NCBI GenBank assembly: GCA_035479295.1 | Contig: DATIIV010000012.1 | Location: forward strand, 65,010-129,009 | Origin: Candidatus Saccharimonadia bacterium | GTDB taxonomy: Bacteria > Patescibacteriota > Saccharimonadia > UBA4664 | Length of the DNA stretch: 64,000 bases | Direction of reading: 5' to 3' | In this document: positions 25,107 to 53,844 of the stretch, in pieces | Numbering within the stretch: the first letter of the stretch is position 1 | Layout: each line of letters starts with the position of its first letter | Translations under genes and position numbers: made by a program | Notes under the pieces: model-generated | Seen by the model: the letters and a program-made list of their open reading frames with translations, nothing else | What the model was told of the DNA's origin: nothing | The model's database searches: none

Positions 25107-26754
25107 GCGTCGACACCTCGGCCTCGACTACCTTGGCGTGGTCGCGCTGCAGCTGGCTAAACGGTGGCACTTCTAGGTAAAAGGTCGAGCCATGGTTGAG
25201 CGTACTCTTGCACCAGACCTTGGCGTTGAGTCGCTCGGCCAGCTCGAGGCAGAGGTACAGGCCGAGGCCGGTGCCGCCGGTCTCGCGAGTCCGGTAGTCC
25301 TCTGAGCGGTAGAATTTGGTGAATAAGTGGCGCTGGTCGCTGGCCGAGATGCCGATGCCGCTATCTTGCACGGCAAAGAGTACGCCGCCGTTTTGGCTTG
25401 GTGCAGCCTTAACAATGATGCCGCCCTCCTGGGTGTACTTCATGGCGTTGGTCAGGTAGTTCTGTAGCACCTCATGAATGTGGTGCTCGGTGGAGAGTAT
25501 GGAGGGTGTGTTGGGCAGCAACACGAGCTTGAGCGACAGGTTCTTCTCCTTGGCCTGGGGCATAAAGTCGTTGACCAACTGTTCGAGCAACAGCTTGGGA
25601 TTAACTGGCCGCAGCTGAATCGGAATAGTATCGTCTTGGGCCTGCGACAGGGTGGTGAGGTCGCGCACGATGCTGCCCAAAAAGACCGTATTGCGGTGCG
25701 CCTGCTCGAGCAAGAGGGTCAGCTGTGACGATAGCTGAGGCTTGGCTAGTAGGGCCGTTGATAGTGCGGCTTCCACAATAGTGAGCGGCGTGCGCAGTTC
25801 GTGCGAGGCCACGGCGATAAACTCTTCGCGCTGCTGATCGAGCGACTTCTCCTTGGTAATATCGCGGCCCACGATAATGTAGTTGATGGCGCCGGCCGCC
25901 CCCAACCGCACAGGCGTAATACTAATATCTAGGTCGGTGATGCTGCCGTCGGGGGCCGCATAGCCCAGATCGCGGCGCTGTTGAGGATCGGTGTTGCCTT
26001 GGGCGAGCTCTACCAGGGAGACGGCCTGCTTGGAGCGGCGCTGGAGCGGCAGTACCTTGGTGAGGTCGCGGCCGCGCAGCTCACCTTTGGCGCTCACGAG
26101 CGCTTGGGCGGCTCCATTGTGCAGAATAATCCGGCCGCGGTCATCAATCATAAAGATGGCGTCGTTGAGGCTATTAACCAGATTGAGCAATCGCTCGCGC
26201 TCGGTCTGGTTGTCGCGACTCAGCGCCTCTAGCTCGTGGCGCTCTTGGCGCTCGGCCCGCGTGAGCCGCTCCACAAATACTCCAATGATCAGCAGTACGA
26301 GCAGACTAATGGCGATGGTGCGCGGTTCGCTTAAGCTTAGGGGTTTGAAGGGCGCCCACATGGCGGTCGGAATCAGGGCTAAGGCTTGGCCGGCAATAAC
26401 GCCGAGTGAGCCGCGCAGACCATACCAATACGCCGCCGAGATAATCATAAAGACCAGAAAGGCCGAGTAGGGGGTGGAGATGCTCCCCACCAGGAGCAGC
26501 AGTGCCGCCACAAACAAGTTATCGAGCACGAGCATGGTAATGCGCGACGAGAGCAGGCGCAATCGGCCAAAGTTGGGCAGATAGTGCAGCATGTTGTAGG
26601 CCGCCGACACGCACATGAGGCCGTATAAGAACAGGCTCTGGGGCTGATCTGGCGGTATCGTAATGAGCGCCGTGCCGATGGTGAGCCAACGCACCTGGCG
26701 CGTTACGCGCTCGTAGTTGGCGGCTTTGTGGAGGGCTCGACCGTGGTTGTCCAT
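25090..26754 (-). CDS. sensor histidine kinase (multi-TM N-terminus, PAS-like, HisKA, HATPase_c)
   Basis: H-box FIAVASHELRTPLT, N-box LQNYLTNAMKYT, G1 VQDSGIGI, G2 GGTGLGLYLC. Five or six N-terminal TM helices. A PAS-like segment (IFMIDDRGRIILHNGAAQ). Confidence 0.9.
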   Translation of the reverse strand: MDNHGRALHKAANYERVTRQVRWLTIGTALITIPPDQPQSLFLYGLMCVSAAYNMLHYLPNFGRLRLLSSRITMLVLDNLFVAALLLLVGSISTPYSAFLVFMIISAAYWYGLRGSLGVIAGQALALIPTAMWAPFKPLSLSEPRTIAISLLVLLIIGVFVERLTRAERQERHELEALSRDNQTERERLLNLVNSLNDAIFMIDDRGRIILHNGAAQALVSAKGELRGRDLTKVLPLQRRSKQAVSLVELAQGNTDPQQRRDLGYAAPDGSITDLDISITPVRLGAAGAINYIIVGRDITKEKSLDQQREEFIAVASHELRTPLTIVEAALSTALLAKPQLSSQLTLLLEQAHRNTVFLGSIVRDLTTLSQAQDDTIPIQLRPVNPKLLLEQLVNDFMPQAKEKNLSLKLVLLPNTPSILSTEHHIHEVLQNYLTNAMKYTQEGGIIVKAAPSQNGGVLFAVQDSGIGISASDQRHLFTKFYRSEDYRTRETGGTGLGLYLCLELAERLNAKVWCKSTLNHGSTFYLEVPPFSQLQRDHAKVVEAEVSTLIDQL

Positions 26755-27259: not shown

Positions 27260-29263
27260 TTATCGGAGTGAGGTTGGCGGTTTGGGTCGGCGCCATAGCC
27301 AGTGGTGCAGGGTTAGGCTGATGCCGCCGAGCAGGCCCAGGCTGAGGCCAATCAGCGAGGCGTTGACGGCCGTCTTGTTGCCCTTAAGCGGCGCAAAGAG
27401 TAGGTTGCGAATGGTCTGGAGGGGCGACAGGTTGTTCTGTACGTCGACGCGCCGGCTGGCTATTTGGGTCTGGCCGCTGGGCGTGGTGGTGACGGCCGTG
27501 ACGGTGTGCTGGCCGTTGGTGAGGTAGGTAGTGTCGAGCTGATTGCCAGTGGTAACGGGCGTGCCGTCGACTTTAATGATGGTGTGGCCGCGGCTGCCCG
27601 GCGTGCCCAGGCTGATGGTGCCGCCCACCACGGGCTGGGCACCGGCCGGAATGGGTACCGGCGTGCTGGTGCCGGGCGGCGTAATGGTAATGGGGTTGCC
27701 GCTGCCCGGCGCCGGGCTGGGCGAGGGGCTGGGGTTGGGCGGTGCCTGGGTCTGTACGGTGAGGTTGGCCCGGGCCGAGGCGTTGCCGGCGGCGTCGTAG
27801 GCCTCCACCTGAAAGGTGTAGTTGGTGGAGGCCGCCAGATTCTGGGCGAGGTAGCTGGTGCCGGCCTGGTCGGCCACGCGGCTGCCGCCCTGGTACACGC
27901 GGTAGCCGCGCACACCCACATTGTCGCTGGCGGCGTTCCAGGCCAGGCTAATCTGGGCGTTGGTAATGAGCGTGGCGCGCAGGCTGCCCGGCACCGACGG
28001 CGCCTGGGTGTCGCCGGGATTGGGCGTCGCGGTGGGCGGAGTCGTGGGCGTGGGAGTGTGGGTGGGCACCGGAGTTGGCGTGGGGGTATGAGTGGGGACG
28101 GGCGTGGGCGCTGTGGTTGGGGGAGGCGTTGGTGCGGGAGTGGTCGCGGCCAGGCTGTGGGCATAGTTCCAAATCAGCTGCCCCAGCGCATCGATGTTCG
28201 TGGGGTTGCCCGAGCTATTAACGGCCACATTGTAGAATGGCCCGCCGCCGTTCACAAACTCAAATCCGCTCAGGCCGTTGCCGTGCCAGGGCAGAATGCC
28301 CACGCCCAACCCCGGTGCCACGCTAAAGGCCGCCTGGGTGCCGGCCTGCAGCAGCGGGTTGTCGCCGGAGCTATCGCCATCGATCCAGCCGGTCTCGCCA
28401 ATCATCAGCGGCAGGTTTTGGCCGTGCATGGCCTGAATAAAGCTGCTTAGCTGGCTGCTCTTATTGGCCCAATTGCCATACACATGCACCGAGAACGCTA
28501 CATTACCGTAACTATTTTTTAACCCCGGTCCATACTGCAAAAAGGCGCTCTGACTATGCCAATCGCCGCCGTAACTCTGCTCCTGGCCGCAGTTTGAGCC
28601 ATCGTACACAATCATATTTTGGGCGCCGGTGGCTCGAATAGCACTCGAGTAATCGTTCATCATGTTGGTCCAGGTGCTGTCGGCATTGCCACTGCCAGGC
28701 TCATTATATAAGTTGAACCAGACGTAAGGATTCGTCTTGTAACGATTAGCTTTGTCGATCCACCAGGTCTTAATGGCGGCGTAGTCGGTGCCATTAACGT
28801 AACCGCAATCGGCACGGGGGTGCATGTCTATCATCACCACCATATGGCGGTTGGTGTACTCGGTGACGATGCCGTCCAGGTCGTTATTAACGCCCGAGAT
28901 GCCGGGGGTGACGCCGGCGTTGTACTGCGACGGATTCTCGGGGCCGCTGTCGAGCTCGCTGTTGAGGCGGATGATGTTCCACTTCCAGGCGGCCTGGGCC
29001 GGCCCGCTCTCGCCCAGGGTGGGGTTACCCCACACAAAGTGCGGCCCGTCCAAGTTGGTCCCCACCGGCGTAAAGACGGCGCCATTGGGGTCGATAATTT
29101 GCCAGCCGCTGAGGTGAAAAGTGCCGGCCGCGAGGCTGTGGCGCACCACGTACAGGCCCGCGACGACGGTGAGCGCCACCACCGCCGCCATGGCCACTAA
29201 GCTCCAGCGGCTGGTTAGTCGAAGACGCCCGAGAGCGATTTTGGAGCGGCGCTTACGCCTCAT
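27260..29263 (-). CDS. glycoside hydrolase family 5 enzyme with PT-linker, FN3 domain, second beta domain and C-terminal TM anchor
   Basis: Start is ATG 29263 (MRRKRRSKIALG...) with an N-terminal signal anchor. GH5 motifs are FNLYNEPG (acid/base), SVHVYG and MIGETGW (nucleophile). FN3 is PSVPGSLRATLITNAQISLAWNAASDNVGVRGYRVY...YTFQVEAYDAAGN. The C-terminal segment is LIGLSLGLLGGISLTLHHWLWRRPK. Confidence 0.85.
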   Translation of the reverse strand: MRRKRRSKIALGRLRLTSRWSLVAMAAVVALTVVAGLYVVRHSLAAGTFHLSGWQIIDPNGAVFTPVGTNLDGPHFVWGNPTLGESGPAQAAWKWNIIRLNSELDSGPENPSQYNAGVTPGISGVNNDLDGIVTEYTNRHMVVMIDMHPRADCGYVNGTDYAAIKTWWIDKANRYKTNPYVWFNLYNEPGSGNADSTWTNMMNDYSSAIRATGAQNMIVYDGSNCGQEQSYGGDWHSQSAFLQYGPGLKNSYGNVAFSVHVYGNWANKSSQLSSFIQAMHGQNLPLMIGETGWIDGDSSGDNPLLQAGTQAAFSVAPGLGVGILPWHGNGLSGFEFVNGGGPFYNVAVNSSGNPTNIDALGQLIWNYAHSLAATTPAPTPPPTTAPTPVPTHTPTPTPVPTHTPTPTTPPTATPNPGDTQAPSVPGSLRATLITNAQISLAWNAASDNVGVRGYRVYQGGSRVADQAGTSYLAQNLAASTNYTFQVEAYDAAGNASARANLTVQTQAPPNPSPSPSPAPGSGNPITITPPGTSTPVPIPAGAQPVVGGTISLGTPGSRGHTIIKVDGTPVTTGNQLDTTYLTNGQHTVTAVTTTPSGQTQIASRRVDVQNNLSPLQTIRNLLFAPLKGNKTAVNASLIGLSLGLLGGISLTLHHWLWRRPKPPTSLR
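28017..28150 (-). repeat. Pro/Thr-rich linker-coding low-complexity repeat
   Basis: Encodes TPAPTPPPTTAPTPVPTHTPTPTPVPTHTPTPTTPPTATP, with the unit TPTPVPTHTP duplicated. Confidence 0.7.
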
Positions 29264-29379
29264 TGTGGTCCCTATTAATGTGCTTATGATTATATACTGC
29301 CTGCCCAGCAGTTGACGAATGCGGTTAAATGGGGGATTATGGGCGGTGCCTTGTACCGAATGTACGGGAGTAATTAGAC

Positions 29380-30366
29380 GTGACAGCTTACGCAGAAGTG
29401 GCCGATGGCCACTGGGTCCGTCCCTCATTTAGCGCCTATGAACTTGAGGTGGCGGAGCGAATTCTAGCCGGCTATTCTCACAAGGTGTTGGCGCAGTGGC
29501 GTGCCCAATGCGTGGGCGCGGAACGAACGGATACGTCGATCACTTCGGTGCTGACTCGCTTGGGCCGGTTGGTTGCACGAGGCGATTCGATTCGCCTGAC
29601 GGTCATCATGGCGGAGCTGAGCTTAATTAAGCTGCCGAATGTGCAGCCCTGGGAAACTGATGCCTTGATGGAATCGGGCCTCAGTTTTGCCTGGGAACAG
29701 ATCCTGGAGCTGGCCATGAATGGCTGCAGCGCTCAACAGATCGCGACGAGGCTAAACCTCAGCTTCTCGCAGGTTCGAGGGCGGATCAGAATGTTACGCT
29801 ACTCCGGCGCGTTTAGGCAGTCTAGACTAATCCGACAGGTGGCAGTTTGGCTGACAACGAGATCTTTCATTCCGGACCGGCTTTCGAAGCGGCCGGTGGT
29901 TCAGGGGCCTCTGCTCTGGCATTACCTGATGGGCTACGATGAAGTGGAGACTCAGAGGCGACTTAACTGCGTCCCGTGGGTGGTGCCAACTTGGACAGCT
30001 CAAATGTTGACGCGCCTGAGAGAGACCTCGCTACTCAGAAGTTGTTTGGACGGCGTGAATAGCGGTAGGCTGCGGCTACCCTATCCACTGCGAGGATCCG
30101 TGGAGGCGCTGACTAAGCAGCCGCTTAGCTCTCGGTGCGTGGAGGAGCTGCGCGATCACGTGATGCGCGCTCGGAATATGACCCTTCAGCAGCAGGCTGC
30201 ACTACGTCAGCCTCAGCCTGATTGGCACGACATCTGTCGTGAGGTGCGCGTCGATACGCCCTGGCAGGCCCTGATGGTTGGGGCGGGTTATGTGTCTAGG
30301 CTAGATCAGTGTGGTGCTTTGGCGCCTCCGAACGCCTACAAGGGAGACGCACAGAATGGCAGCTAG
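29380..30366 (+). CDS. protein of about four tandem LuxR/GerE-type HTH-like modules (paralog 1)
   Basis: GTG start after GGGAG. The best module is LSFAWEQILELAMNGCSAQQIATRLNLSFSQVRGRIRMLR. Three more degenerate modules are colinear with the next gene, for example GPLLWHYLMGYDEVETQRRL and TPWQALMVGAGYVSRL. Confidence 0.6.
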   Translation: MTAYAEVADGHWVRPSFSAYELEVAERILAGYSHKVLAQWRAQCVGAERTDTSITSVLTRLGRLVARGDSIRLTVIMAELSLIKLPNVQPWETDALMESGLSFAWEQILELAMNGCSAQQIATRLNLSFSQVRGRIRMLRYSGAFRQSRLIRQVAVWLTTRSFIPDRLSKRPVVQGPLLWHYLMGYDEVETQRRLNCVPWVVPTWTAQMLTRLRETSLLRSCLDGVNSGRLRLPYPLRGSVEALTKQPLSSRCVEELRDHVMRARNMTLQQQAALRQPQPDWHDICREVRVDTPWQALMVGAGYVSRLDQCGALAPPNAYKGDAQNGS

Positions 30367-32709: not shown

Positions 32710-34035
32710 ATGGATGATATTCAGTCTCAGCCTATCTTTTTGATTATTGTTGGCATCTCGGGCGATTTGGCGCGTCGCAAGCTCTTGCCGGCTCTGCGCC
32801 AGATTGCGGCGGCGGGTGAGTTGCCACGCGAGTTTCGGGTTATCGGCATCACCCGCCGGCAGCTCAATGTGGCCAGCCTAACGGCCGGCGATGCCTTTTT
32901 GGCCGCGCACCTGGAGCTCTACCAAATGGATCTGGCCGAAGTCGCGGCCTACGACGGCCTTAAGCGACATCTGGCACAGCTCGAGCAGCAGTTGGGCGGC
33001 GCGGCTCAGCGGCTGTATTATCTCTCGGTGCCGCCGCAGGTGTCTGGGCCAATCGTGCAATTATTGGGCGAGTCTGGCTTAGCGGCTATGCCAGACAGTA
33101 AGTTGCTGCTCGAGAAGCCGTTTGGCACCGATCTCGCTTCGGCTGAGGACTTTATTGCCCACACCCAGCGCCACTTTACCGAGGACCAAATCTACCGCAT
33201 CGACCACTACTTGGCCAAAGAGATGGCTCAGAATCTGCTGGTATTTCGGGGCGGCAATGCGCTGTTTCGGCGCACCTGGAACCATGAGTTTATCGAGCGC
33301 ATCGAGCTGCTGGCCAGCGAAGAGATCGGCATTGAGGGTCGCTCGGCCTTTTACGAGCAGACCGGCGCGCTGCGCGATTTGGTGCAGAGCCACCTGCTGC
33401 AGCTGGCGGCTCTCACGCTCATGGAGGTCCCGCCGGCCGGCGACGAGACCCAGCTGCGGGCGGCCCGGCTCGCCGCCTTGCAGGCGCTGCAGCCGCCGGT
33501 CGATAGTACGCGGGATGTGCGCCGCGGCCAGTATATTGGCTACCGGGCCGAGGTGGCCAACCCCGCTAGTGCCACCGAGACGTTTGTATCGCTGACGCTC
33601 CGATCGCACGATCCGCGCTGGCAGGGTGTGCCCATTACGCTCACAACCGGCAAAGGCCTGGCGCGCAAAACCACCGAAATTCGAATTCATTATCGTCAGA
33701 GCGAGGCCGACGAAGCCAATGAGCTGGTGCTGCGCGTGCAGCCGCGCGAGGGCATCGAGCTTGATCTGTGGGCCAAGCGACCCGGCTACGACCATCGGCT
33801 CGAACGCGTGCCGCTCGAGTTTGCCTACAGCCGTCACTTCGACTCGCTGCCGGAGGCCTACGAGCGCGTGCTGGTCGACGCCATGCGGTCGCGCCGCAGT
33901 CTGTTTGCTTCGAGCGAGGAGGTACTGGCCTCGTGGCGCATCCTGGCGCCGGTGCAGCGGGCTTGGGGCATGAGCGATAAAGACTTAATCCTCTATCCGC
34001 TTGGCAGTGAGCCGGCCGCCGTCATTGGTCGGTAA
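32710..34035 (+). CDS. zwf: glucose-6-phosphate 1-dehydrogenase
   Basis: Dinucleotide-binding IVGISGDLARRKLLPAL, active-site RIDHYLAKE, and EKPFG. At 441 aa it is shorter than typical Zwf. Confidence 0.9.
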   Translation: MDDIQSQPIFLIIVGISGDLARRKLLPALRQIAAAGELPREFRVIGITRRQLNVASLTAGDAFLAAHLELYQMDLAEVAAYDGLKRHLAQLEQQLGGAAQRLYYLSVPPQVSGPIVQLLGESGLAAMPDSKLLLEKPFGTDLASAEDFIAHTQRHFTEDQIYRIDHYLAKEMAQNLLVFRGGNALFRRTWNHEFIERIELLASEEIGIEGRSAFYEQTGALRDLVQSHLLQLAALTLMEVPPAGDETQLRAARLAALQALQPPVDSTRDVRRGQYIGYRAEVANPASATETFVSLTLRSHDPRWQGVPITLTTGKGLARKTTEIRIHYRQSEADEANELVLRVQPREGIELDLWAKRPGYDHRLERVPLEFAYSRHFDSLPEAYERVLVDAMRSRRSLFASSEEVLASWRILAPVQRAWGMSDKDLILYPLGSEPAAVIGR

Positions 34036-34750
34036 TCGCTGCCATAAAGGCCGCTGCAATCGCTGCATAACCTCGCTCGTTGGGATGGAATCGGTCGGCG
34101 GCTAGCTTGCCCGTCCAGGGCAGGGCAAAGGCCGGCCCCATATCTGCTATTTTGAGTCCACGCTGCTGAGCCTGTCGATGCAGAAGCCGGCTGGCCGCTC
34201 GGTAGCGCAACACCGGTGCTAGCAGCGGCGGAATGTTAGGTCGGGCAAAGATATCGGCTACCACGGCGCCGTGTGGCAGCTGCATGAGCAAATGGTCGAG
34301 CCGCCGGAGCAGATGGCGGCGACCGCCGGGCTGAACCAAATCGTTGGAGCCGATCATAACGGTGATCAGATCGGGCCGGAGGCCCAGCTGATCCAGCACC
34401 GGCAGTTGATGATCGATCACGTCCTGAATTCGCCCACCACTAACCGATAGATTGATGAGTCGGTAGCTCCGACCGACCGCAGCTAGCCGTGCGTGGGCCT
34501 GGCCGACCCAGCCGCGGTCGTAGGCCGGGGCGCCAATGCCCTGCGACATCGAGTCGCCGAGTACCACCCACAGCCGGCCCGACCCACCAAGGGCTTGCTC
34601 ATTGGCTTGGTGCCAGGCCGCCGCATACGGCTCTGCTTGGTCTTGCACGGCTCGAAGCGACGGCCACAACTGCCGCAGTAACCGCCGTCCCAAGGCCAAG
34701 CTTGGGTGTAGGGGAGTGCGCCGCTGATAGGAGTTGGTCGCCAAAGCCAC
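34022..34750 (-). CDS. SGNH/GDSL-family hydrolase (esterase/lipase-like)
   Basis: Block I VVLGDSMSQGIG, block III IGSNDL, block V DRFHPNERGY. The GTG start is 8 nt downstream of the histidine kinase stop, suggesting the same operon. Confidence 0.8.
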   Translation of the reverse strand: MALATNSYQRRTPLHPSLALGRRLLRQLWPSLRAVQDQAEPYAAAWHQANEQALGGSGRLWVVLGDSMSQGIGAPAYDRGWVGQAHARLAAVGRSYRLINLSVSGGRIQDVIDHQLPVLDQLGLRPDLITVMIGSNDLVQPGGRRHLLRRLDHLLMQLPHGAVVADIFARPNIPPLLAPVLRYRAASRLLHRQAQQRGLKIADMGPAFALPWTGKLAADRFHPNERGYAAIAAAFMAAITDQ

Positions 34751-34758
34751 GGGCCGGT

Positions 34759-36987
34759 TTAGCTCTGGGCGGCGGCGCCAGACTCAGCCGTTTTGGCTCT
34801 AGCCTTAGCTTCGGCCGCTGCTCCGTTGGGTTGCGGCAGCACAATTACCGAAGTGGTCTTAAGCGGCAGCGCGAAGCCAAAGATGCTACCCTTGCCCTCC
34901 TCGGACTTAAAAATAATCGAGCCACCTTGGTCCTCGATCACGCGCTTAGCTAGGTACAAGCCCAAGCCGGTGCCGTCCGGCCGCTCGGCCTTGGCGTTCT
35001 CGGCCCGGTAAAACTTGGAGAACAGGTGACGCTTCTCGTTCTCTGGCACGCCAATGCCGCTATCGATTACCAGCACCTCGGCAGCGCCCTCAGACTCGCG
35101 CACCTCCACCGTGACGCTGCCCTTGGGCGTGTAGTAAATGGCATTATCGATAAAATTCATAATCACCTGGCGCGTCTTGCTCTCGTCGATCGACAGCATG
35201 GGCAGCGGCTTGTCGGGCTGCTTAAAGATGAGTTCCAGCTTCTTGCGCTCGGCGCTCGGCCGCAGCTGCTGCACCTCCTGCTGGGCCAGCTCGCTCAAGT
35301 CCACCGGCTGGCGCTGAATCATAAACCGCCCCGAGCTCAGTCGCGACACATTCAGCAGATCGCTCGACATCGACACCATCCGCTCGGCCGCCTCTAGCGC
35401 GTAGTTAACATACTCGCGCTGCTTCACCGTCATGTTGGCCTGGTCGTCATCGAGCGCCATCGACAAGTAGCCGGTAATGGCGGTCAGCGGCGTGCCCAGC
35501 TGGTGCGACGCCATCGAGATGAAGTCGTCTTTGGTCTTATCCAGCACCTGCAAGTTGCGGTTGGCGGTGCGCAGTCGGTGCGTCGCATTGCGAATCCGCT
35601 CCTGCAGCGTGGCGTTAAAGTGGGCGATCTCTTCGTAGGATTTAGCGTTCTCAATCGCTACGGCTAGTTCTTTGCGGACGATATCGAGCAGCGTCAGATC
35701 CTGGCCCGAATACATTTCGCCACTCATCTTGTAGCCCAGGAAGAGATAGCCCACTAGCTCTTTCTCGGTGCTTAACCTAATAATGACGCCTAGGCCATGC
35801 TCCTCTAGGAATGATTTGGTTGCACCGGGCTCAAGCTCATCTGCTACCAAGGTGCTAGCGTTAATGTGCTCTAAATCCTTGTAGGTAAGTTTATAACGGG
35901 GCTCGTCACCAATGAATGTACGACTATAAATACTGTTGTTCTCGACAATGATGATTTGACCAGTAGCGATGCGCAATGACCAACAGAGCGTGCGCAATGA
36001 CTTCTTGAGGAGCGGTTCAAGTAAGAGCTCTGAAGTCAGAATCTCGCTTAAATCATCGAGCACGATCTGACTGTCGTAGCGATCTCGAAAGAATATGCTG
36101 TCGGTGACCTTCTCGAACAGTCGGCGTAAAGGCTGAAAGGTAATGGCTAGAAATAGCGCCAGGGCAACAAAGACACCAGTTTGGGCTAGCGGGATATTAT
36201 TCTGAAAGAGAATGTTGCTTGCCGCTAGGATGGTAATTCCATACAGGCCAATAAAAGTTGTAAGAAGCAAAAGATAGGCAACTGATCGGGCGACGGCTAG
36301 CCTGATACTAAAGAGTCGATGCTTAACGATAGCGTACGAGACCGACCCCACCAAGAAAACGGTTAGCAATGGGCCGATGCGCGATATGTCCCAGTTGCCG
36401 ACGATAGCCGGAATGACAATGTTTGTGAGCACAGCCAAGATAATAAAACCCGCTATTCCCAGCATAATAAGACGAGTTTGAGCGCGAAGCCGCAAGTCGA
36501 TTCCAGTGTTCCGGTACAGCTTCCAGAGGTAGTAGCAAGATAGTCCAAACATCACCAAGATGAAAATGGGGTAGAGAGTATAAAGGCTGCCGAGAGCAAC
36601 GTTGGTTCCTCCGTCGGGCCGCTTTGAGACGGGACCAACCACGAAATCGCTTAAAGAGAAGATGGTGCCAGCAATAATAATGACGGCACTAACAAGCTGT
36701 CTCCGCTTGCTGGCGCTTTGTTTGCCGCCAAAGTAAAACGCAAACAACGTTATGGTGGCTAACACGAGAAAACCGGCGCCAAAGTCAAGGCGAGCAAAGA
36801 ACTGATCAAGGCCAAGCGTGGGAGCTCGGTCGGTAAGATAATTGAAGATCGTCCAGGCGGTGATTGACAGGGAGATGCCAAAAAACGCCCGACTCTCGGC
36901 TCGCTGAGGGTTACGCATAAACACGAGCGAGCCGAGAGCCAAATTGCTTACTGAGGCGAGTATGAGGATGGCGAGGTCAAATATCAT
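34759..36987 (-). CDS. multi-TM + GAF sensor histidine kinase (HisKA_7TM/PrsK-like architecture), paralog A
   Basis: About nine N-terminal TM helices (MIFDLAILILASVSNLALGSLVFMRNP...). GAF-like block (LVGYLFLGYKMSGEMYSGQDLTLLDIVRKELAVAIENAKSYEEI). H-box FISMASHQLGTPLT, N-box NFIDNAIYYT, DSGIGV, GTGLGLYLAK. ATGA overlap with the upstream gene. Confidence 0.9.
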   Translation of the reverse strand: MIFDLAILILASVSNLALGSLVFMRNPQRAESRAFFGISLSITAWTIFNYLTDRAPTLGLDQFFARLDFGAGFLVLATITLFAFYFGGKQSASKRRQLVSAVIIIAGTIFSLSDFVVGPVSKRPDGGTNVALGSLYTLYPIFILVMFGLSCYYLWKLYRNTGIDLRLRAQTRLIMLGIAGFIILAVLTNIVIPAIVGNWDISRIGPLLTVFLVGSVSYAIVKHRLFSIRLAVARSVAYLLLLTTFIGLYGITILAASNILFQNNIPLAQTGVFVALALFLAITFQPLRRLFEKVTDSIFFRDRYDSQIVLDDLSEILTSELLLEPLLKKSLRTLCWSLRIATGQIIIVENNSIYSRTFIGDEPRYKLTYKDLEHINASTLVADELEPGATKSFLEEHGLGVIIRLSTEKELVGYLFLGYKMSGEMYSGQDLTLLDIVRKELAVAIENAKSYEEIAHFNATLQERIRNATHRLRTANRNLQVLDKTKDDFISMASHQLGTPLTAITGYLSMALDDDQANMTVKQREYVNYALEAAERMVSMSSDLLNVSRLSSGRFMIQRQPVDLSELAQQEVQQLRPSAERKKLELIFKQPDKPLPMLSIDESKTRQVIMNFIDNAIYYTPKGSVTVEVRESEGAAEVLVIDSGIGVPENEKRHLFSKFYRAENAKAERPDGTGLGLYLAKRVIEDQGGSIIFKSEEGKGSIFGFALPLKTTSVIVLPQPNGAAAEAKARAKTAESGAAAQS

Positions 36988-37796
36988 GCGGGCGTAGGTC
37001 CTGTAAATGCTGGAAACTTGAAGACTTCTTGAAGACCCTCGCCCCGGAACAGCCAGCCAAATCGCTTTGGGTCATTAACGCAAAGGCGCGCCATCCAGTC
37101 CTCGATATCCACCCAAACGGGCAGGCTCAGACTTGAACCAAGGTAAGGCTTCCAACCTATCCCCTCGTAGTAGCTAAAGGGTTCACCAAGTCTGCGCTTG
37201 AAGCTGTTGTGAGCGGACTCATCAACTATTGTAACCCAATAGCGAGCAGCTTGCTCTAGTGTATACTTACATGCCATGTGGTAGATCGCCTTGGCGATCC
37301 GGCCCGAGTATGCGTGGCGATGGTAGGCCGGGACTACCCCCATTGTCACCATGTCTAGCGTAGTTTTGGGGCCAAAGTCGACAGCAGCGGCTTGTAGCGC
37401 CTGAGTTAGCGGTAGGTTCCAGTACCGACCAGGCTCGCTTGACTCGATGTCGGTGAGGCTTTTAAAGCCGAGGGGCGACCGTCTGATCACTCGCAACATT
37501 CCGGCTGGTAGACCGTTTGCATGGTCGATAAGGATAAAGAATGTGCTGTAGGGATCATATGGCCCATACTCTCTCTCTAGATCCTCTGGCGTGTCCCCGT
37601 AGAAAGCGAATACGTCCGCCTCCGCCAACCGCGCGACTGGCAATGCCCAGTGCGGTGTGCCGGTTTGGGGCTCGATGCGATAGACGCCAAATGGCTGCGA
37701 TGGCGCGGCATTACCCTGGTCCATGAGGCGGCGAATCAGGTCCTTAGAGCGAATCGTCTCTTCCCACTGTTCTCGCACTAGCCCCGTAGCGACCAC
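36984..37796 (-). CDS. GNAT/LuxI-fold N-acyltransferase-like protein (tentative), cassette A
   Basis: ARLAEADVFAFYGDTPEDLEREYGPYDPYSTFFILIDHANGLPAGMLRVI parallels the LuxI/NAS block (R..VF....W....E.D.YD..S.H....G...G..R). A later segment is DMVTMGVVPAYHR...IAKAIYHMACKYTLEQAARYWVTIVD...FKRRLGEPF. The GTG start shares one base with the upstream stop (TAGTG). Confidence 0.5.
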   Translation of the reverse strand: MVATGLVREQWEETIRSKDLIRRLMDQGNAAPSQPFGVYRIEPQTGTPHWALPVARLAEADVFAFYGDTPEDLEREYGPYDPYSTFFILIDHANGLPAGMLRVIRRSPLGFKSLTDIESSEPGRYWNLPLTQALQAAAVDFGPKTTLDMVTMGVVPAYHRHAYSGRIAKAIYHMACKYTLEQAARYWVTIVDESAHNSFKRRLGEPFSYYEGIGWKPYLGSSLSLPVWVDIEDWMARLCVNDPKRFGWLFRGEGLQEVFKFPAFTGPTPA

Positions 37797-38137
37797 TAGG
37801 TCTCCTTAAACTCGATGTGTGAAGCCTTGAAATAACGCTGAGTAAACTCCACAGCGTTATTCACATTGAAAGCCTTGCAGGTATATATGTCAACGCTAAA
37901 GAAGAGGCGCGGTTGCTCCCAGGCGTATAGGTGAGCCCCCGATGTTTCCCAGTGAATCCAGCCAGCCCAGCCGTAGAGGTCTGAGCGGTGTGTCACCGGT
38001 TTGATGAGTGCTGTCATGCCTGTTACGACAGAGAGCTGTTCAAGGTAGTCTTTAATTTGGGCATCATCAATAGGTTGGGCGCAATAGCCCTCAATAATAA
38101 GCCGCTGCCGGTATATCTCCGGCGCTAGATCCCTCAC
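37796..38137 (-). CDS. S-adenosylmethionine-decarboxylase-like (AdoMet_dc fold) small protein
   Basis: GTG start after AAGGAG with an 8-nt spacer. At 113 aa it is colinear with small bacterial SpeD/SpeH: RLIIEGYCAQPID aligns with ELYGC, WIHWETSGAHLYAWEQ aligns with the (L)AESHISIHTWPE processing/active-site strand, and FFSVDIYTCKAF aligns with AALDVFTCG. Confidence 0.55.
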   Translation of the reverse strand: MRDLAPEIYRQRLIIEGYCAQPIDDAQIKDYLEQLSVVTGMTALIKPVTHRSDLYGWAGWIHWETSGAHLYAWEQPRLFFSVDIYTCKAFNVNNAVEFTQRYFKASHIEFKET

Positions 38138-38215
38138 CCCATAGCTCCTTGTTCAGGCCCATCATACTCTTCTTAGGACCGCTAAGTCTACGTAAAAAGA
38201 TGAAATTAAAGCGTT

Positions 38216-38623
38216 TTACGCCGCCCCAGCTGCTCCCGGAATCTCGTCCTTGGTATAGCCCGCCAAGATGCCGCGGACGATCTCCTCGACCTGCTTGGGC
38301 TTGTGCTCGCTCTTGATGATGTAGCGGACGGCGCCGAGCTCGAGGGCGGTCTGGACGTCGCTGTTGCCGGCCAGGTTGGTGAGCACCACCACCGGAAGAT
38401 TGGCCACGGCCGGATCGGCCTTGAGCTGCTTGAGCACCTCCATGCCGTTAAGCTTGGGCATCATGATGTCGAGCAGAATGAGCGTGGGGTTAACCGAGCG
38501 TGCTTTGTCGAGGCCCTCTTGGCCGTCGGTGGCCAGTTCAACCTCGTAATTATTCGAGGCAAAGATCGTCTGATACATCCGCGAGAGTAAGGCGTCATCT
38601 TCGATGATTAGAATCTTAGGCAC
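38216..38623 (-). CDS. receiver-only response regulator (cassette A)
   Basis: ILIIEDD, LILLDIMMPKLNGMEVL, VVVLTNL, VRYIIKSE. The preferred start is GTG 38623 with GAGG 8 nt upstream. Alternative ATG starts lie at 38650 and 38734. Confidence 0.85.
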   Translation of the reverse strand: MPKILIIEDDALLSRMYQTIFASNNYEVELATDGQEGLDKARSVNPTLILLDIMMPKLNGMEVLKQLKADPAVANLPVVVLTNLAGNSDVQTALELGAVRYIIKSEHKPKQVEEIVRGILAGYTKDEIPGAAGAA

Positions 38624-38737
38624 ACTGAAAACCTCATTTACGCCCATCATACACGAGGCAAGCGAGAAGCGGAAGCCCTTAAGCATAAGCTTTATCAAAG
38701 GACAAATTTCGCGGTTGAGCCGATGGAGCGGCAAATG

Positions 38738-39106
38738 TTAGGACAGGAACGTGAGCGCGCAGGCCGCAAAGATGATGGCAATATCGCGAAAGGTGATGTC
38801 GAGCGAGCCGAGGTTGACTACCATAATGGCCACGGTGGTGGCGGCCGTCACGATGGCGGCGTACTGGCCGCGCCAGCCGGTGAGCAGCCAGATGGCCAGC
38901 GCCGCCTGGAAGGCCGAGAAGCCAGCCAACAGCAGGCTAGCCGGCGCCAGGTGTCGCAGCATGAGGGGCAGGTAGCCGATCCAGTTGTTGGGGTAGAGCG
39001 TGGCGGCCACGGCGGCGTAGGCAAACACGGCTGCGAGACCCAGCCGCAGCAAAAATCGGGCTCGCAGCACCTGGCGGGCGGTGGGCAGGGGGCGTAGTTG
39101 CTTCAT
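38738..39106 (-). CDS. small 4-TM membrane protein (possibly DoxX-like)
   Basis: 122 aa with four hydrophobic helices. The family assignment is tentative. Confidence 0.55.
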   Translation of the reverse strand: MKQLRPLPTARQVLRARFLLRLGLAAVFAYAAVAATLYPNNWIGYLPLMLRHLAPASLLLAGFSAFQAALAIWLLTGWRGQYAAIVTAATTVAIMVVNLGSLDITFRDIAIIFAACALTFLS

Positions 39107-39180
39107 GGCTGCATTATACTGCTTATGCTCAATAAGAGTTAGTGTTATGATGGCCGTACGGGGCTAATAAGAGGACGATT

Positions 39181-39603
39181 ATGAAGAATAAGAACGTTAT
39201 TATAACGCTCGTGGTAGCGATTATTATCGTGGTAGCGGTAGCAATTTATCTGGCTATGGCCGGAGGCAAAACCACCGGTAGCCCAATGGCTTCGGCCTCG
39301 CCGACGCCGCAAGCGGTGCCGAGTAGTCAGGCCGTGTCCACTATTAAGTACAATGTCTCGGGCGGCTTTAGTCCTAGCTCGGTCACTATTAAGTCGGGCC
39401 AGGCTATCACCTTTACGAATGATTCGGCCGACGAGATTCAGGTCGACTCCGATCCGCACCCCACGCACACCGATAATCCCGAGCTGAATGTGGGCACCAT
39501 TGCGGCTGGGCAGAGCCAGACCATTAAGCTAACCACCGCCGGCAGCTGGGGCTACCACAACCACCTCAACCCGAGCGACAAGGGGCGCGTGATCGTACAG
39601 TAG
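39181..39603 (+). CDS. membrane-anchored cupredoxin-fold-like protein lacking the Cys ligand
   Basis: N-terminal TM. A beta-sandwich-like C-terminus with FSPSSVTIKSGQAITFTNDS, DSDPHPTH and GSWGYHNHLNPSDKG. His-rich motifs are present but there is no Cys. Confidence 0.5.
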   Translation: MKNKNVIITLVVAIIIVVAVAIYLAMAGGKTTGSPMASASPTPQAVPSSQAVSTIKYNVSGGFSPSSVTIKSGQAITFTNDSADEIQVDSDPHPTHTDNPELNVGTIAAGQSQTIKLTTAGSWGYHNHLNPSDKGRVIVQ

Positions 39604-39607
39604 GCGA

Positions 39608-39638
39608 GGCCGGCCGGGCAAGAGACGCCCGGCCGGCC
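39608..39638. terminator. bidirectional hairpin terminator
   Basis: GGCCGGCCGGGC-AAGAGAC-GCCCGGCCGGCC: a 12-bp stem between convergent genes. Confidence 0.7.
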
Positions 39639-39658
39639 ATAATTTGGTGGTTACGCTT

Positions 39659-40444
39659 CTATGCCTCCACGAGCTTGATGGTCCACAGATCGGAGGTCAG
39701 CTCGCGATCGGTGAGGTAGGCGAGCGGCAGGTAAAAGTAGCCGGCGTCGCCCCAGCGCTTGCCCCACGAGTTGCGGCAGATGAAGTAGCCAGCGGCCATG
39801 TCGTAGCCCACCACCAGGATGGCGTGGCCACCCAGGAGCTCCTCGTTGGGCTTCGGCACGGGAATGACGCCGGTGCGGTTGGCCTCGTCGCTCTCAAAGC
39901 TGGCGTAGACCGCGATGCCGGCCACGAACGGGCGGCCGGCCGCCAAGCAGCTGCGCATGTTGGTGTCGTCGCTCGTTACCTTGATGCGAGCGTACGACAG
40001 CACCTGGTTGGAGAGCGCGTCAGCGTAGCACTGGGCGGACGGCTTGACGGTGAAGCGGCTGATGTCGTACAGCCACTCGCTCTCGGGCGGCACGCCCAGC
40101 TTGGCCAGAACCTTCATGCCGTCGCGAAGGTAGGCGCCGGCGTCGGTGTCGACGGTGCCCTCGCGTGCGCGCTCATTGTAGTAAATGAACAGCCGGCTCG
40201 GGCCGATGGGCTCCTGACCCTGCCGGCGACGCTCCATGTCGTAGGCCGCCGCCAGCGCGTTGGCGGTGCAGCTGCCCAGCTGGCCCTGGTCGTACACGTC
40301 CGGGCAGTCCGGGCGCAGGTCGATGCTATTGGGCAGCTGCGAGGGGCGGATGTCTAGGCCGGCGCGGTCGAACTTGTGGTCGCGGGGGTCGCGCGGATCG
40401 GGGATATTCCCGAGGCCGTGGCCGCGGGGCGTTACGAGCGCCAT
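39659..40444 (-). CDS. papain-like (C1 family) cysteine peptidase, no signal peptide (paralog 2)
   Basis: DQGQLGSCTANAL, GGHAILVVGYD, CRNSWGKRWGDAGYFYLP. Colinear with 31316..32113 and roughly two-thirds identical by eye. Confidence 0.9.
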   Translation of the reverse strand: MALVTPRGHGLGNIPDPRDPRDHKFDRAGLDIRPSQLPNSIDLRPDCPDVYDQGQLGSCTANALAAAYDMERRRQGQEPIGPSRLFIYYNERAREGTVDTDAGAYLRDGMKVLAKLGVPPESEWLYDISRFTVKPSAQCYADALSNQVLSYARIKVTSDDTNMRSCLAAGRPFVAGIAVYASFESDEANRTGVIPVPKPNEELLGGHAILVVGYDMAAGYFICRNSWGKRWGDAGYFYLPLAYLTDRELTSDLWTIKLVEA

Positions 40445-46256: not shown

Positions 46257-48107
46257 GTGTTGAAGCTAGCTTGGTCAGAGAATTATCGTCGATTAACAGG
46301 TGTGGCGCTGTATGCGCTGCTGGCCTTGGTGCTGTTTGTGGTAGGGCAGGGGGCAGCGGTTCAGGTTGTGTTGCTGGTGGGCTCACTGGTGGCGGTCAGT
46401 CCGCTCATCGTTGACATGATTAAAGAGGTTCGCGGCGGCAATTATGGCATTGATCTGCTAGCCGTAACGGCGATTCTGGCCTCGCTGGCGCTGCACGAAT
46501 TTTTGGTAGCTACGGTGATTTTGCTAATGCTGACCGGCGGTGAGGCGCTCGAGGCTTATGCGCAGGAGCACGCCAAAAAGGAATTGAGTGATCTGCTCGA
46601 TCGGGCGCCCAAGACGGCTCATCGCTACGACGGCGATGAGCTGCATGACGTGCCGGTGAACCAGGTGCGGGTGGGTGATCGGCTACTGATTAAGCCGGGC
46701 GAGACGGTGCCGGTGGACGCGGTGGTGATCGACGGCGCCTCGAGCTTTGACGAGGCGGCCATTACTGGCGAGAGCCTGCCGGTGGACAAGGCGGTGGGGC
46801 AGGACGTGGTGAGCGGGTCGGTGAATACCACTCGGCCGGTGACCGTGACGGCCAGCCACACGAGCGCCGAGAGCCAGTACCAGCAGATCGTACAGCTGGT
46901 GCGCCAGGCGGCCTCGAGCCGCAGCCCGCTGGTGCGCCTGGCCGATCGCTACAGCGTGCCGTTTACGATCATTAGCCTAGGGCTGGCGGGCGTGGCTTGG
47001 GCCTTAAGCGGCCAGGCCTTGCGGGCGCTAGAGGTGCTGGTTGTGGCGACGCCCTGCCCACTGCTGCTGGCGACGCCGGTGGCGATCGTCTCGGGCATGA
47101 GTCGGGCGGCGCGCCATGGCATTATCGTTAAGAGCGGTGCGGCGCTGGAGCAGTTGGCGCGGCTGCGGGCGGTGGCGTTTGACAAGACGGGCACATTGAC
47201 CAAGGGCGAGCCCAAAGTTGATCGAGTTAAGCCGGTGGCTGGCGGTGATGAAGCGGAGCTGCTAGCTACTCTGGCGGCGCTCGAGCAATCATCCAATCAC
47301 ATCTTGGCCCAAGCGGTGGTAGCGGCGGCTCAGGCGCGCGGCCTCAAGCTGCCAGCCAAGGTGGAGCAACTCAGGGAGGAGCCGGGCAGTGGCTTGGTGG
47401 CTACGGTGGATGGCCGCGTGGTGGTGGCCGGCCGGCCGCAGTGGCTGCAGAGCCATGGGGTAGAGTTGCCGGCCGGCCTGCCCACCGACCAGACGGTGGC
47501 GCACGTAGCCATCGCTGGCCGTTACGCCGGCTCGGTTAGCTTTGCCGACCAGGTGCGGCCGGAGACCAAGGCTACGCTGCGCGAGCTGGCCGACCTGGGC
47601 ATTCGCAAAACGCTCATGCTCACCGGCGACCAGGCCGGCGTCGCCCGGCGCATCGCTCACCAGGTCGGCCTCACCGACGTGCAGGCCGAGCTGCGGCCGG
47701 CGGCCAAACTGGCTGCCATTAAGGCGCTAGAGGCACACCACCAGCCGGCCGCCATGGTCGGCGACGGCGTCAACGACGCGCCCACCCTAGCCGCCGCCGA
47801 CGTCGGCATCGCCCTGGGTGCCCGCGGCTCCACCGCCGCCAGCGAGTCGGCCGACGTCGTCATCATGCTCGACGACCTGGCGCGCGTGCCGCTGGCCATC
47901 CACATCGCCCGCCGCGCTATCCTCATCGCCAACCAGAGTATCCTGGTCGGCATCGGCCTCAGCATTGTGCTTATGCTTATCGCCATGACCGGCGTTATCC
48001 CGCCGGTGTACGGCGCCCTGCTGCAAGAGGCGGTGGACGTGGCCGTCATCTTGAATGCGTTGCGGGCGCGGTCGGGGCGATTAGTGGGGCGAAAACAGGT
48101 CAGCTAG
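46257..48107 (+). CDS. P1B-type heavy-metal-translocating ATPase without N-terminal metal-binding domain
   Basis: TGES (AITGESLP), a TM6 PCP motif (VVATPCPLLLATP), phosphorylation site DKTGTLT, and hinge GDGVNDAP. There is no CxxC N-terminal domain. Start is GTG 46257 or TTG 46260. Confidence 0.9.
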   Translation: MLKLAWSENYRRLTGVALYALLALVLFVVGQGAAVQVVLLVGSLVAVSPLIVDMIKEVRGGNYGIDLLAVTAILASLALHEFLVATVILLMLTGGEALEAYAQEHAKKELSDLLDRAPKTAHRYDGDELHDVPVNQVRVGDRLLIKPGETVPVDAVVIDGASSFDEAAITGESLPVDKAVGQDVVSGSVNTTRPVTVTASHTSAESQYQQIVQLVRQAASSRSPLVRLADRYSVPFTIISLGLAGVAWALSGQALRALEVLVVATPCPLLLATPVAIVSGMSRAARHGIIVKSGAALEQLARLRAVAFDKTGTLTKGEPKVDRVKPVAGGDEAELLATLAALEQSSNHILAQAVVAAAQARGLKLPAKVEQLREEPGSGLVATVDGRVVVAGRPQWLQSHGVELPAGLPTDQTVAHVAIAGRYAGSVSFADQVRPETKATLRELADLGIRKTLMLTGDQAGVARRIAHQVGLTDVQAELRPAAKLAAIKALEAHHQPAAMVGDGVNDAPTLAAADVGIALGARGSTAASESADVVIMLDDLARVPLAIHIARRAILIANQSILVGIGLSIVLMLIAMTGVIPPVYGALLQEAVDVAVILNALRARSGRLVGRKQVS

Positions 48108-51912: not shown

Positions 51913-52299
51913 CTAAACCTTCTTGGCTAGTAGCGCCTTTACCCGCTCCGTCACCTCTTTGGGCGTCATCTCGGCCTTCACAATGTAGTCGTCGGCGGCC
52001 ATTTTGTAGACGCGCGTGGCCGTCTCGGTGTCGCCCATGTTGGTTAGCACGACCACTTTAGCGTCGCGCCCATTGGCCTGAGAACGCAGCTTTTGCAGCA
52101 TCTCCAAGCCATTCATATTGGGCATCATCAAATCGAGCAAAATAATATCAGGTGCAAACGACTCAATTAATTCCAGTCCACCGGCGCCATCGCCGGCCGT
52201 GGCCACCTCGTAGCCCTCATTCTCAAACTTCACCCGATACATCTGCACGATCGCCATGTCGTCCTCGATGATCGCCACTTTGACTTTTTGGTCACTCAT
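51913..52299 (-). CDS. receiver-only response regulator
   Basis: VAIIEDD, IILLDLMMPNMNGLEML, VVVLTNM, DDYIVKAE. 128 aa. Confidence 0.9.
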   Translation of the reverse strand: MSDQKVKVAIIEDDMAIVQMYRVKFENEGYEVATAGDGAGGLELIESFAPDIILLDLMMPNMNGLEMLQKLRSQANGRDAKVVVLTNMGDTETATRVYKMAADDYIVKAEMTPKEVTERVKALLAKKV

Positions 52300-52362
52300 A
52301 TCTGTAGTTTATAACGCGATTTAACCATAAGCAATTATTTCTCAGCTAATTTGTAGCTGCTG

Positions 52363-53010: not shown

Positions 53011-53018
53011 CGGTAAAA

Positions 53019-53049: not shown

Positions 53050-53093
53050 AATATTAAAGGCAATGCAAGATGCAAAATGAGGAGTAATAGATA

Positions 53094-53807: not shown

Positions 53808-53844
53808 TATCAACTTAAGCAAAAGAGCTATAGAATAAAGATTA

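Follow-up and report, generated by a model that had tools for sequence, protein, structure and literature searches.

The window analysed here is a stretch of 64,000 nucleotides from a Candidatus Saccharimonadia bacterium (GenBank assembly GCA_035479295.1, contig DATIIV010000012.1, positions 65,010 to 129,009 of the forward strand), and it encodes two paralogous seven-transmembrane (7TM) sensor histidine kinases, here called kinA and kinB, in both of which the GC content breaks inside the gene. Saccharimonadia (TM7, episymbiotic bacteria of the candidate phyla radiation, CPR) combine a very small genome with a life attached to host bacteria. To our knowledge, little is known about how they sense partners or kin. 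The sensor modules of the two kinases and the enzyme genes adjacent to them are the most exchangeable and compositionally deviant DNA of the region, and the same holds for relatives across the class. The genes and blocks concerned are listed below (aa, amino acids; GC3 and GC2, GC content at third and second codon positions).

34759 to 36987, minus strand: kinA, 742 aa, with HisKA_7TM (aa 8-228), linker and GAF-like domain (aa 229-452), HisKA (aa 486-553) and HATPase_c (aa 601-710), from Pfam
34759 to 35630, minus strand: high-GC3 catalytic core of kinA, codons 453-742, GC 0.602, GC3 about 0.84
35631 to 36987, minus strand: low-GC3 part of kinA, codons 1-452 (7TM, linker, GAF-like), GC 0.492, GC3 about 0.57
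36984 to 37796, minus strand: hyp270, GNAT-fold and FeeM/LuxI-like, 270 aa, GC3 0.61, directly upstream of kinA with a 4-nt overlap
37796 to 38137, minus strand: AdoMet_dc-like gene (S-adenosylmethionine decarboxylase family, AdoMetDC-like below), 113 aa, GC3 0.59, PF02675 at 44.6 bits
35631 to 38137, no strand: low-GC block A, GC 0.516, comprising the AdoMetDC-like gene, the GNAT-fold gene and kinA codons 1-452
38216 to 38686, minus strand: stand-alone receiver-domain response regulator upstream of block A, GC3 0.76, Pfam Response_reg, 156-aa gene call in locus L001
51913 to 52299, minus strand: stand-alone receiver-domain response regulator, divergent from kinB, left anchor of block B (Pfam)
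52363 to 53010, minus strand: PlsC-family acyltransferase in block B, 215 aa, GC3 0.53, PF01553 at 46.9 bits
53094 to 53807, plus strand: GNAT (Acetyltransf_5) directly upstream of kinB, 237 aa, GC3 0.56
53845 to 56013, plus strand: kinB, 722 aa, with HisKA_7TM (aa 10-219), linker, GAF-like region, HisKA (aa 477-545) and HATPase_c (aa 593-702), from Pfam
52313 to 54664, no strand: low-GC block B, GC 0.494, comprising the PlsC gene, the GNAT gene and kinB codons 1-273
54665 to 56013, plus strand: conserved part of kinB from codon 274 to the end (end of linker, GAF-like, HisKA, HATPase_c), GC 0.579
56006 to 56455, plus strand: stand-alone receiver-domain response regulator overlapping the kinB stop codon, 149 aa (Pfam), with a gene call in L088 and DNA homology to L084

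Both kinases match HisKA_7TM (PF16927) above its gathering cut-off of 28.6 bits (kinA, 36.1; kinB, 29.6), and their catalytic domains score 54.7 and 65.1 bits for HisKA and 84.4 and 83.5 bits for HATPase_c, respectively. The middle region is called GAF-like because of its homology to family members that have GAF matches in Pfam (PF01590/PF13492). The two proteins are 44% identical over their full length, and full-length homologues were found across Saccharimonadia. Both types occur together elsewhere (family members P0012 and P0051 apparently on one contig, P0002 and P0028 from one sample), so kinA and kinB are old paralogues. The NCBI protein for kinB (P0086) has 649 aa and is thus 73 residues shorter than the 722-aa open reading frame (ORF). 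The longer start is supported on two counts: the N-terminus that it yields resembles P0021 (MDIPSLLLFLVTATNLLLGL...), and the gene is called that way in L088. The kinB operon probably includes one more small gene, at 56448-56627 (plus strand), which overlaps the downstream receiver gene at its end and whose predicted product is a membrane protein of 59 aa; its counterpart in L084 (5758-5937) lies at the same place and is similar in DNA.

GC3 steps inside the two kinases

The GC break was first described in an earlier note on this DNA from hand counts of eight 60-nt samples, all of which were reproduced on recount. In kinA, GC is 0.65 in the catalytic half (35041-35100) and 0.483 and 0.45 in the sensor half (36301-36360 and 36541-36600, respectively); in kinB it is 0.50 at 53881-53940 and 0.733 at 55681-55740. 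The neighbouring genes gave 0.467 (37201-37260), 0.50 (53201-53260) and 0.483 (52561-52620), and the mean of the 64-kb window is 0.588. Along kinA, GC3 is 0.46 to 0.66 (about 0.57) over codons 1-450 and 0.76 to 0.92 (about 0.84) over codons 451-700, and GC2 holds close to 0.38 across the step; along kinB, GC3 is 0.44 to 0.66 (about 0.55) over codons 1-300 and mostly 0.68 to 0.88 beyond, the rise to about 0.75 falling at codons 250-300. The break is therefore a step at synonymous sites, and GC2 is flat.

The step was located by a change-point scan in which the expected GC3 per amino acid and codon family was taken from the window's own genes and p values came from permutation. The change point at kinA codon 453 (T = 6.3, p < 0.001) ranked first among 39 genes, and that at kinB codon 250 (T = 6.0, p < 0.001) ranked third. 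Thus, the profile stays uneven in both kinases after amino-acid control, here as well as in residuals against the local background, which is the check that the earlier note had proposed. Its break stands, but not the single sensor-to-core junction at which it had placed both breaks: the kinA step lies between the GAF-like domain and HisKA, and the kinB step at the end of the 7TM region and linker, ahead of the GAF-like domain. Significant intragenic GC3 heterogeneity is frequent among the window genes, mostly close to the 5' end, and kinA and kinB form the extreme end of this distribution and are not unique. A third histidine kinase (25090-26754, minus strand, 554 aa, PAS-HisKA-HATPase_c) keeps a high GC3 (0.77) along its whole length, without a significant change point (p = 0.24), showing that the break is not general to the kinases of this genome.

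Both low-GC blocks are 2.4 to 2.5 kb long and cross gene borders. Block B is the lowest-GC 2.4-kb stretch of the window (0.2nd percentile of 2.4-kb windows), and block A lies at the 2.2nd percentile. On the far side of each block stands a stand-alone receiver-domain gene of normal GC3 (0.72 to 0.76).

A separate observation concerns gene starts: in most genes with a significant change point, the 5' end (first 60 to 120 codons) is the lower-GC3 side, for example in 27260-29428, 16539-17492, 46257-48107 and 57420-58505. Over-extended ORF starts or signal peptides may be part of the cause.

Module replacement and the enzymes upstream of the kinases

The closest genome available for comparison (sample SRR22279394, GCA_029288275.1; loci L083, L084 and L085; locus GC about 0.55) has orthologous loci of both kinases, the kinB locus being extensively syntenic and the kinA locus sharing the upstream gene order. 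At the kinB locus, blastn against L084/L085 gave 76 to 79% identity on both sides of block B, covering the response regulator gene, kinB from codon 274 and the downstream response regulator, and farther out the P-type ATPase and the ATP synthase operon. Between these flanks, 52313-54664 has no DNA similarity detectable by blastn to the 2.1 kb that occupy its place in L084 and encode a different 7TM region together with two proteins, one of 230 aa and a membrane protein of 141 aa. The edges of the non-homologous interval are the edges of low-GC block B and lie within about 25 codons of the kinB GC3 change point. The same contrast is seen against L020: the divergent response regulator at 51913-52299 (79% DNA identity to L084) is 90% identical there, whereas the adjacent PlsC-family protein reaches 43%. 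This replacement by non-homologous DNA at an orthologous locus bears out the proposal that enzyme genes and sensor part are modules grafted onto a conserved kinase core.

The kinA locus shows another pattern. Against L083, 36263-38150 is 70% identical in DNA and comprises the AdoMetDC-like gene, hyp270 and kinA codons 1-242; codons from about 242 to 409 have no DNA similarity by blastn, and the core resumes at 72.6%. Protein identity between kinA and its orthologue P0002 is 77% in the transmembrane (TM) region, 57% in the linker, 42% in the GAF-like domain and 72% in the core.

Sensor and core also differ in their nearest relatives. We compared segment identities in an alignment of 178 sequences (family members plus kinA and kinB), 171 of them scorable. 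Against P0028, kinB is 21% identical in the TM region, 87% in GAF and 86% in the core; the values are 47%, 71% and 79% against P0038 and 41%, 58% and 68% against P0021. Column bootstraps placed P0038 nearer than P0028 in the kinB TM region in 2000 of 2000 replicates and P0028 nearer in GAF plus core in 2000 of 2000, so that sensor and core relationships, for which the earlier note had advised a comparison, turn out to be incongruent. For kinA, P0002 is closest in both TM region and core, yet several unrelated members are more similar in GAF (bootstrap support for P0002, 2 to 5%). Across the family, the nearest neighbour for the TM region is also that for GAF plus core in only 16 of 171 sequences, and in 52 cases a GAF-plus-core neighbour more than 75% identical (up to 92%) has a TM identity below 35%, the baseline level of the family. 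Over 1378 locus pairs, TM identity shows no correlation with core identity (rho -0.16). This decoupling shows that exchange or replacement of the sensor module is general in this kinase family.

The TM region does have a companion, namely the gene upstream. Of 66 loci, 53 have an ORF ending shortly before the kinase, and over the 1378 locus pairs the similarity of the upstream protein follows that of the TM region given the core (partial Mantel r = 0.61, p = 5e-4), with far lower values against the core given TM (0.12) and against GAF given the core (0.08). Enzyme and sensor thus behave as one unit, as had been supposed, and the core has a different history. The kinB GNAT illustrates this: its only significant relatives lie upstream of P0038 (L086, 55%) and P0021 (L087, 39.5%), the two kinases with the most kinB-like TM regions, and the gene upstream of the core-closest relative P0028 gave a marginal match (25% over 141 aa, E = 0.005). 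These relatives came from the contigs of the best TM matches; a tblastn search with the kinB GNAT gave no match at E 1e-5 in 80 genome loci. In the kinA cassette type, the AdoMetDC-like protein is 65 to 70% identical in L004, L008, L035 and L080, always beside a hyp270-type gene, and across these distant loci both GNAT and TM region fall to about 30%. Altogether, the modules have been reshuffled many times among Saccharimonadia, with conserved flanks formed by the divergent response regulator gene and the kinase interior.

Both upstream neighbours had been taken for acyltransferase-like genes, and profiles, hhalign and an AlphaFold model agree on a GNAT fold of FeeM/LuxI-like type. The protein hyp270 matches no Pfam or NCBIfam family, and direct BLASTP against the kinB GNAT gave E = 0.16, the link being recovered only through intermediates, profiles and structure. 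BLAST connects hyp270 to the 230-aa protein of L084 (E = 3e-7), and hhalign aligns it to the kinB-type GNAT group (probability 82%, E = 1e-5, 151 columns). Its AlphaFold model (pLDDT 84.7, pTM 0.85) has a GNAT fold; among the matches listed, the N-acyl amino acid synthase FeeM (2g0b) ranks first by target-normalised TM-score (0.70 to 0.73), with GCN5/PCAF-type acetyltransferases at about 0.6 to 0.66 and the N-acyl homoserine lactone (AHL) synthase BjaI at 0.57 to 0.59. The kinB GNAT matches Acetyltransf_5 at 32 bits (cut-off 22.4), scores below threshold for Autoind_synth (PF00765; 20.9 versus 24 bits) and aligns to the exosortase-associated acyltransferase TIGR03694 at E = 2e-11 (43.7 versus a cut-off of 111.95). 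In other loci, the upstream slot holds ThiF-family proteins (10 of 51), GNAT/FeeM-like proteins, methyltransferases, alpha/beta hydrolases, a UbiA prenyltransferase, LPG_synthase_C or a nitroreductase. A divergent stand-alone receiver gene lies 1.5 to 5 kb upstream of the kinase in 57 of 80 loci.

Two of the loci carry unexpected organism names. L004 (DATLCF010000001.1), titled Nevskiaceae bacterium, has a Saccharimonadia-type kinase with an AdoMetDC-like/hyp270-type cassette, and L063 (JAEYSX010000003.1), titled Candidatus Parcubacteria bacterium, has a Saccharimonadia-type member of the kinase family; the taxonomic labels of these metagenome-assembled genomes (MAGs) may be wrong.

Explanations of the GC deficit

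The GC deficit is not confined to this genome. Core GC3 exceeds TM GC3 in 59 of 61 full-length homologues from genome assemblies (mean difference +0.135), and the mean amino-acid-controlled GC3 residuals against the local background are -0.075 for the upstream gene, -0.071 for TM, -0.043 for the linker, -0.023 for GAF and +0.056 for the core. For kinA, these residuals are -0.10 in TM, -0.17 in the linker, -0.17 in GAF and +0.12 in the core. Fourteen metagenome loci, used as a small replication set after a metagenome scan for closer relatives of the kinB core had found none above 79% identity in GAF plus core, point in the same direction (TM, -0.081; core, +0.044). The deficits of the upstream gene and the TM region grow with the background GC3 of the host (rho -0.71 and -0.75) and all but vanish in hosts of low GC. 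Fitted to the other 47 loci, a regression crosses zero at a background GC3 of 0.30, the sample median being 0.47, and predicts -0.19 at the background of this genome (0.73), where -0.10 to -0.18 was observed. Within loci, the GC3 residual of a segment tracks the similarity of the segment's closest relative in 44 of 49 cases.

Such a deficit could be produced by recent horizontal import of blocks A and B from lower-GC donors, not yet ameliorated, which alone would explain the drop. Block B without DNA similarity at the orthologous locus, and as the lowest-GC stretch of the window, fits this explanation; so do the lower GC of most sampled Saccharimonadia loci (median background GC3 0.47) and the accessory nature of the other low-GC3 DNA in the window, that is, a CGNR zinc-finger and MFS insert and a probable toxin-antitoxin pair, neither of which occurs in L084/L085. 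However, block A, with its AdoMetDC-like gene, GNAT and TM region, is shared with the related genome at a synonymous divergence (dS) of about 2.4. Because dS against that genome is saturated (1 to 2.4), block A must have been resident for long, yet it is still GC3-poor. The kinB cassette type is GC3-poor in the partly syntenic locus L086 too, and the deficit is family-wide, with a zero-crossing at 0.30 and not at the pool median of 0.47, and with no positive excess in low-GC hosts. Of the features expected of a genomic island, atypical composition is present (0.2nd and 2.2nd percentiles), but the blocks have no meaningful flanking direct repeats, and no integrase, transposase or other mobility gene occurs among the neighbouring genes; no tRNA was noted either, though no tRNA scan was made. 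Recent import as the whole cause is thus rather unlikely. The earlier note had spoken of horizontally acquired or exchanged cassettes, an idea that proved largely right: exchange is upheld, whereas acquisition as the cause of low GC is not established, in view of the age of block A and of a family-wide deficit that scales with host GC3.

Selection on codons at individual sites (Akashi-type accuracy selection), or codon bias linked to expression, would need no recombination at all. It would agree with the positive core residual (+0.056) in hosts of any GC, with the ATP synthase genes having the highest GC3 in the window, and with conserved columns lying 0.04 to 0.05 above variable columns within segments (p = 0.03 and 0.0008). 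This effect is far below the step of 0.2 to 0.3, and the deficit spans entire neighbouring genes and covers sequences that are conserved, namely the AdoMetDC-like gene (nonsynonymous divergence, dN, 0.09) and the kinA TM region (77% identical to its orthologue, above the core). Non-homologous replacement and incongruent similarities would also be left unexplained, making this alternative improbable. Together, the results argue that the GC3 deficit is regional, not a site-level effect, and persistent, not the mark of recent import that has yet to ameliorate. Amino-acid composition of membrane proteins, which the earlier note had allowed as a contributor, or an N-terminal ramp of rare codons for membrane insertion, is very improbable as the cause. 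TM regions do abound in Leu, Ile, Phe and Val, and hydrophobic, T-rich TM codons would lower GC; many window genes are lower in GC3 over their first 60 to 120 codons, and the pooled TM-helix codons of the other membrane proteins in the window are slightly negative (-0.038). But those codons are almost without a deficit (about -0.04, with non-TM codons at +0.005) compared with -0.17 and -0.23 in the two kinases. GC2 shows no step along either kinase, and the GC3 step survives when amino acid and codon family are controlled for. In most of the other polytopic proteins (FtsX-like, 16539-17492, 17665-18273, 58515-59069), TM GC3 is at least as high as non-TM GC3, and the low GC3 extends to the soluble GAF-like region of kinA and to soluble enzyme genes in both blocks. 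Finally, because the source is metagenome-assembled and conserved kinase cores are plausible points of mis-joining, the contig could be a chimera of strains or species of different GC. We regard such an assembly or binning artefact as scarcely credible: separate Logan assemblies of run SRR9179560 match 52015-55319 and 33382-39987 with 0 mismatches and span all junctions, the reading frames are intact and keep the family architecture, and dozens of unrelated assemblies show this GC3 pattern too. A separate possibility is that the high core GC3 came from gene conversion between the kinA and kinB cores, for which no support was obtained (longest exact match 17 nt, DNA identity 67%, dS 1.29).

The GC break is most likely the border between a hypervariable, exchangeable module and a conserved kinase core within one operon. 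The module would comprise one or two genes for small-molecule enzymes and the 7TM sensor domain, and in kinA also the linker and the GAF-like domain. Exchange may proceed by homologous recombination in the conserved flanks, a route that the lack of flanking repeats and mobility genes fits. Low GC3 would then probably be a standing signature of such modules in GC-rich hosts and not a date stamp of recent import. The likeliest cause is that a force that raises GC3, either GC-biased gene conversion tied to homologous recombination or selection or both, acts more weakly on cassette DNA because this DNA has few recombination partners, and occasional import from mostly lower-GC relatives may add to the effect secondarily. 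As for function, the enzyme might make or modify a lipid-like or other small molecule, which the neighbouring 7TM domain would detect within the membrane; the GAF-like domain, HisKA and HATPase_c would then relay the signal to the stand-alone receivers. The result would be a non-peptide analogue of the agr and comQXP specificity cassettes.

Several points weigh against this explanation or narrow it. We infer the weaker action of gene conversion or selection from the scaling with host GC3 and the zero-crossing, and a small site-level codon effect (+0.04 to 0.05 at conserved columns) does exist. Incongruence was judged from identity comparisons, not from full maximum-likelihood phylogenies, and in kinA the GC3 step (codon 453) lies apart from the break in TM similarity (about codon 242). 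It is ambiguous in which lineage the kinB locus was swapped, as the kinB cassette type also occurs in L086, which is partly syntenic (the same downstream response regulator and Polysacc_deac_1 genes); the L084 lineage, and not the present one, may be the one that changed. Signal synthase and receptor are putative functions of the enzyme-sensor pairs, as are the activity of the enzymes and the ligand of the 7TM domain; no above-threshold family match was obtained for LuxI, LuxN, PrsK, OlsB or the exosortase-associated acyltransferase. Since the upstream enzymes are diverse, a single signal-synthase reading may be too narrow.

More tentatively, it is possible that the modules are ancient allelic cassettes of the whole class, perhaps persisting across species, in which the variable enzyme (a FeeM/LuxI-like GNAT helped by PlsC or an AdoMetDC-like protein, in other loci a ThiF-like enzyme, methyltransferase, hydrolase or prenyltransferase) makes a lineage-specific lipid or small-molecule cue and the matching 7TM domain reads it for kin or host recognition, as a counterpart of the agr/comQXP pherotypes that works without a peptide; the GC3 trough would then be the footprint of suppressed recombination between cassette types. 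If, under the exchangeable-module explanation, the enzyme-sensor pairs are signal-receptor pairs, they would offer a testable handle on cell-cell or host recognition in a CPR lineage, and the logic of polymorphic specificity cassettes would extend beyond the peptide systems of Firmicutes. An intragenic GC3 step at a domain border is usable as a marker of module exchange, and low GC in such modules need not imply recent transfer.

Related systems and other accessory DNA

In the staphylococcal agr locus, a hypervariable region lies in agrB, agrD and agrC and takes in the signal-processing enzyme and the sensor part of the histidine kinase, whose catalytic part is conserved (PMC10482373). Enzyme and sensor vary together there as specificity pairs. 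The loci described here resemble agr (groups I-IV) in that the hypervariable stretch consists of an enzyme and the membrane sensor part of a kinase (52313-54664 in kinB) and in that enzyme and sensor co-vary independently of the core. The components differ. GNAT-fold enzymes, with PlsC or an AdoMetDC-like protein, stand in place of AgrB peptidases, and the kinases combine 7TM, GAF-like region and a HisKA-type core and are not of the HPK10 type. A DNA-binding response regulator as output (LytTR AgrA or ComA) was not found next to the kinases; the four regulators neighbouring kinA and kinB are all stand-alone receiver domains of 128 to 156 aa. There is also no room for a peptide-precursor gene of the agrD/comX type: the blocks have gaps of 84, 38 and 79 nt and two overlaps of 1 to 4 nt, so that no small ORF fits between their genes, although small ORFs overlapping genes were not searched. 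Moreover, the variation was seen here between species or genera, the species of the window being represented by one MAG and one sequencing run, and the signal is putative.

The comQXPA locus of Bacillus subtilis is similar in having the gene of a modifying enzyme directly upstream of a polytopic sensor kinase with a variable N-terminal part. ComQ is an isoprenyl transferase acting on the ComX peptide, whereas no peptide gene was seen here and the enzyme chemistry is another. Taken by analogy, the arrangement would be a new variant of agr/comQXP-like polymorphic loci, and we found no description of it in Saccharibacteria in the literature searched.

Systems with acyl-transfer enzymes provide further parallels. 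In LuxM/LuxN, and with LuxI-type enzymes, an acylated small molecule made by a GNAT-fold acyl-transfer enzyme is read by a polytopic membrane histidine kinase, a parallel to the arrangement proposed here. The N-terminal half of kinA matches LuxN weakly (NF041945, E = 1.5e-5, 23.3 bits against a cut-off of 1550), but LuxN is a hybrid kinase without a GAF domain. In PEP-CTERM systems, a FeeM-like N-acyl amino acid synthase (TIGR03694) is genomically linked to PrsK (TIGR02916), a multi-TM, GAF-containing kinase that the N-terminal half of kinB matches over 424 residues (E = 1.9e-6, 26.8 against a cut-off of 300). Among the scanned subset of window proteins, no exosortase, PEP-CTERM protein or PrsR-type regulator was present, though no targeted search was made. 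The LuxN and PrsK matches are leads, not memberships. The adjacent GNAT (Acetyltransf_5) and PlsC of the kinB cassette also recall the OlsB/OlsA aminolipid pair, the GNAT scoring 17.5 against the OlsB equivalog (cut-off 350).

Accessory DNA of bacteria is GC-poorer than the conserved DNA of the same genome, and GC-biased gene conversion has been put forward as a hypothesis for this difference. The window agrees in that its other low-GC3 DNA is accessory, but in kinA and kinB the boundary falls inside a single gene and recurs at domain borders throughout the family.

Two further intervals of the window are accessory, GC-poor DNA relative to the comparison genome. A CGNR zinc-finger regulator (48771-49340, minus strand) and an MFS transporter (49364-50551, plus strand), with GC3 of about 0.53 to 0.54, occupy a 2.6-kb interval between the P-type ATPase and tetrahydrofolate dehydrogenase genes; in L085 this interval measures only 0.75 kb, with an LssY_C gene in it. 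A low-GC patch (0.47 to 0.51) lying between the polysaccharide deacetylase gene and the kinB operon contains two small adjacent ORFs on the plus strand (56846-57130, 94 aa; 57132-57392, 86 aa), which by eye are probably a RelB/DinJ-type antitoxin and a RelE/YafQ-type toxin. The stretch 56628-57415 has no blastn similarity in L084, where a single 91-aa ORF separates the 59-aa gene from the deacetylase gene. Two other low-GC3 ORFs, 9889-10872 (plus strand, 327 aa, GC3 0.54) and 1557-1862 (minus strand, 101 aa, GC3 0.52), have no Pfam match and may be more accessory DNA or, for 1557-1862, not a gene.

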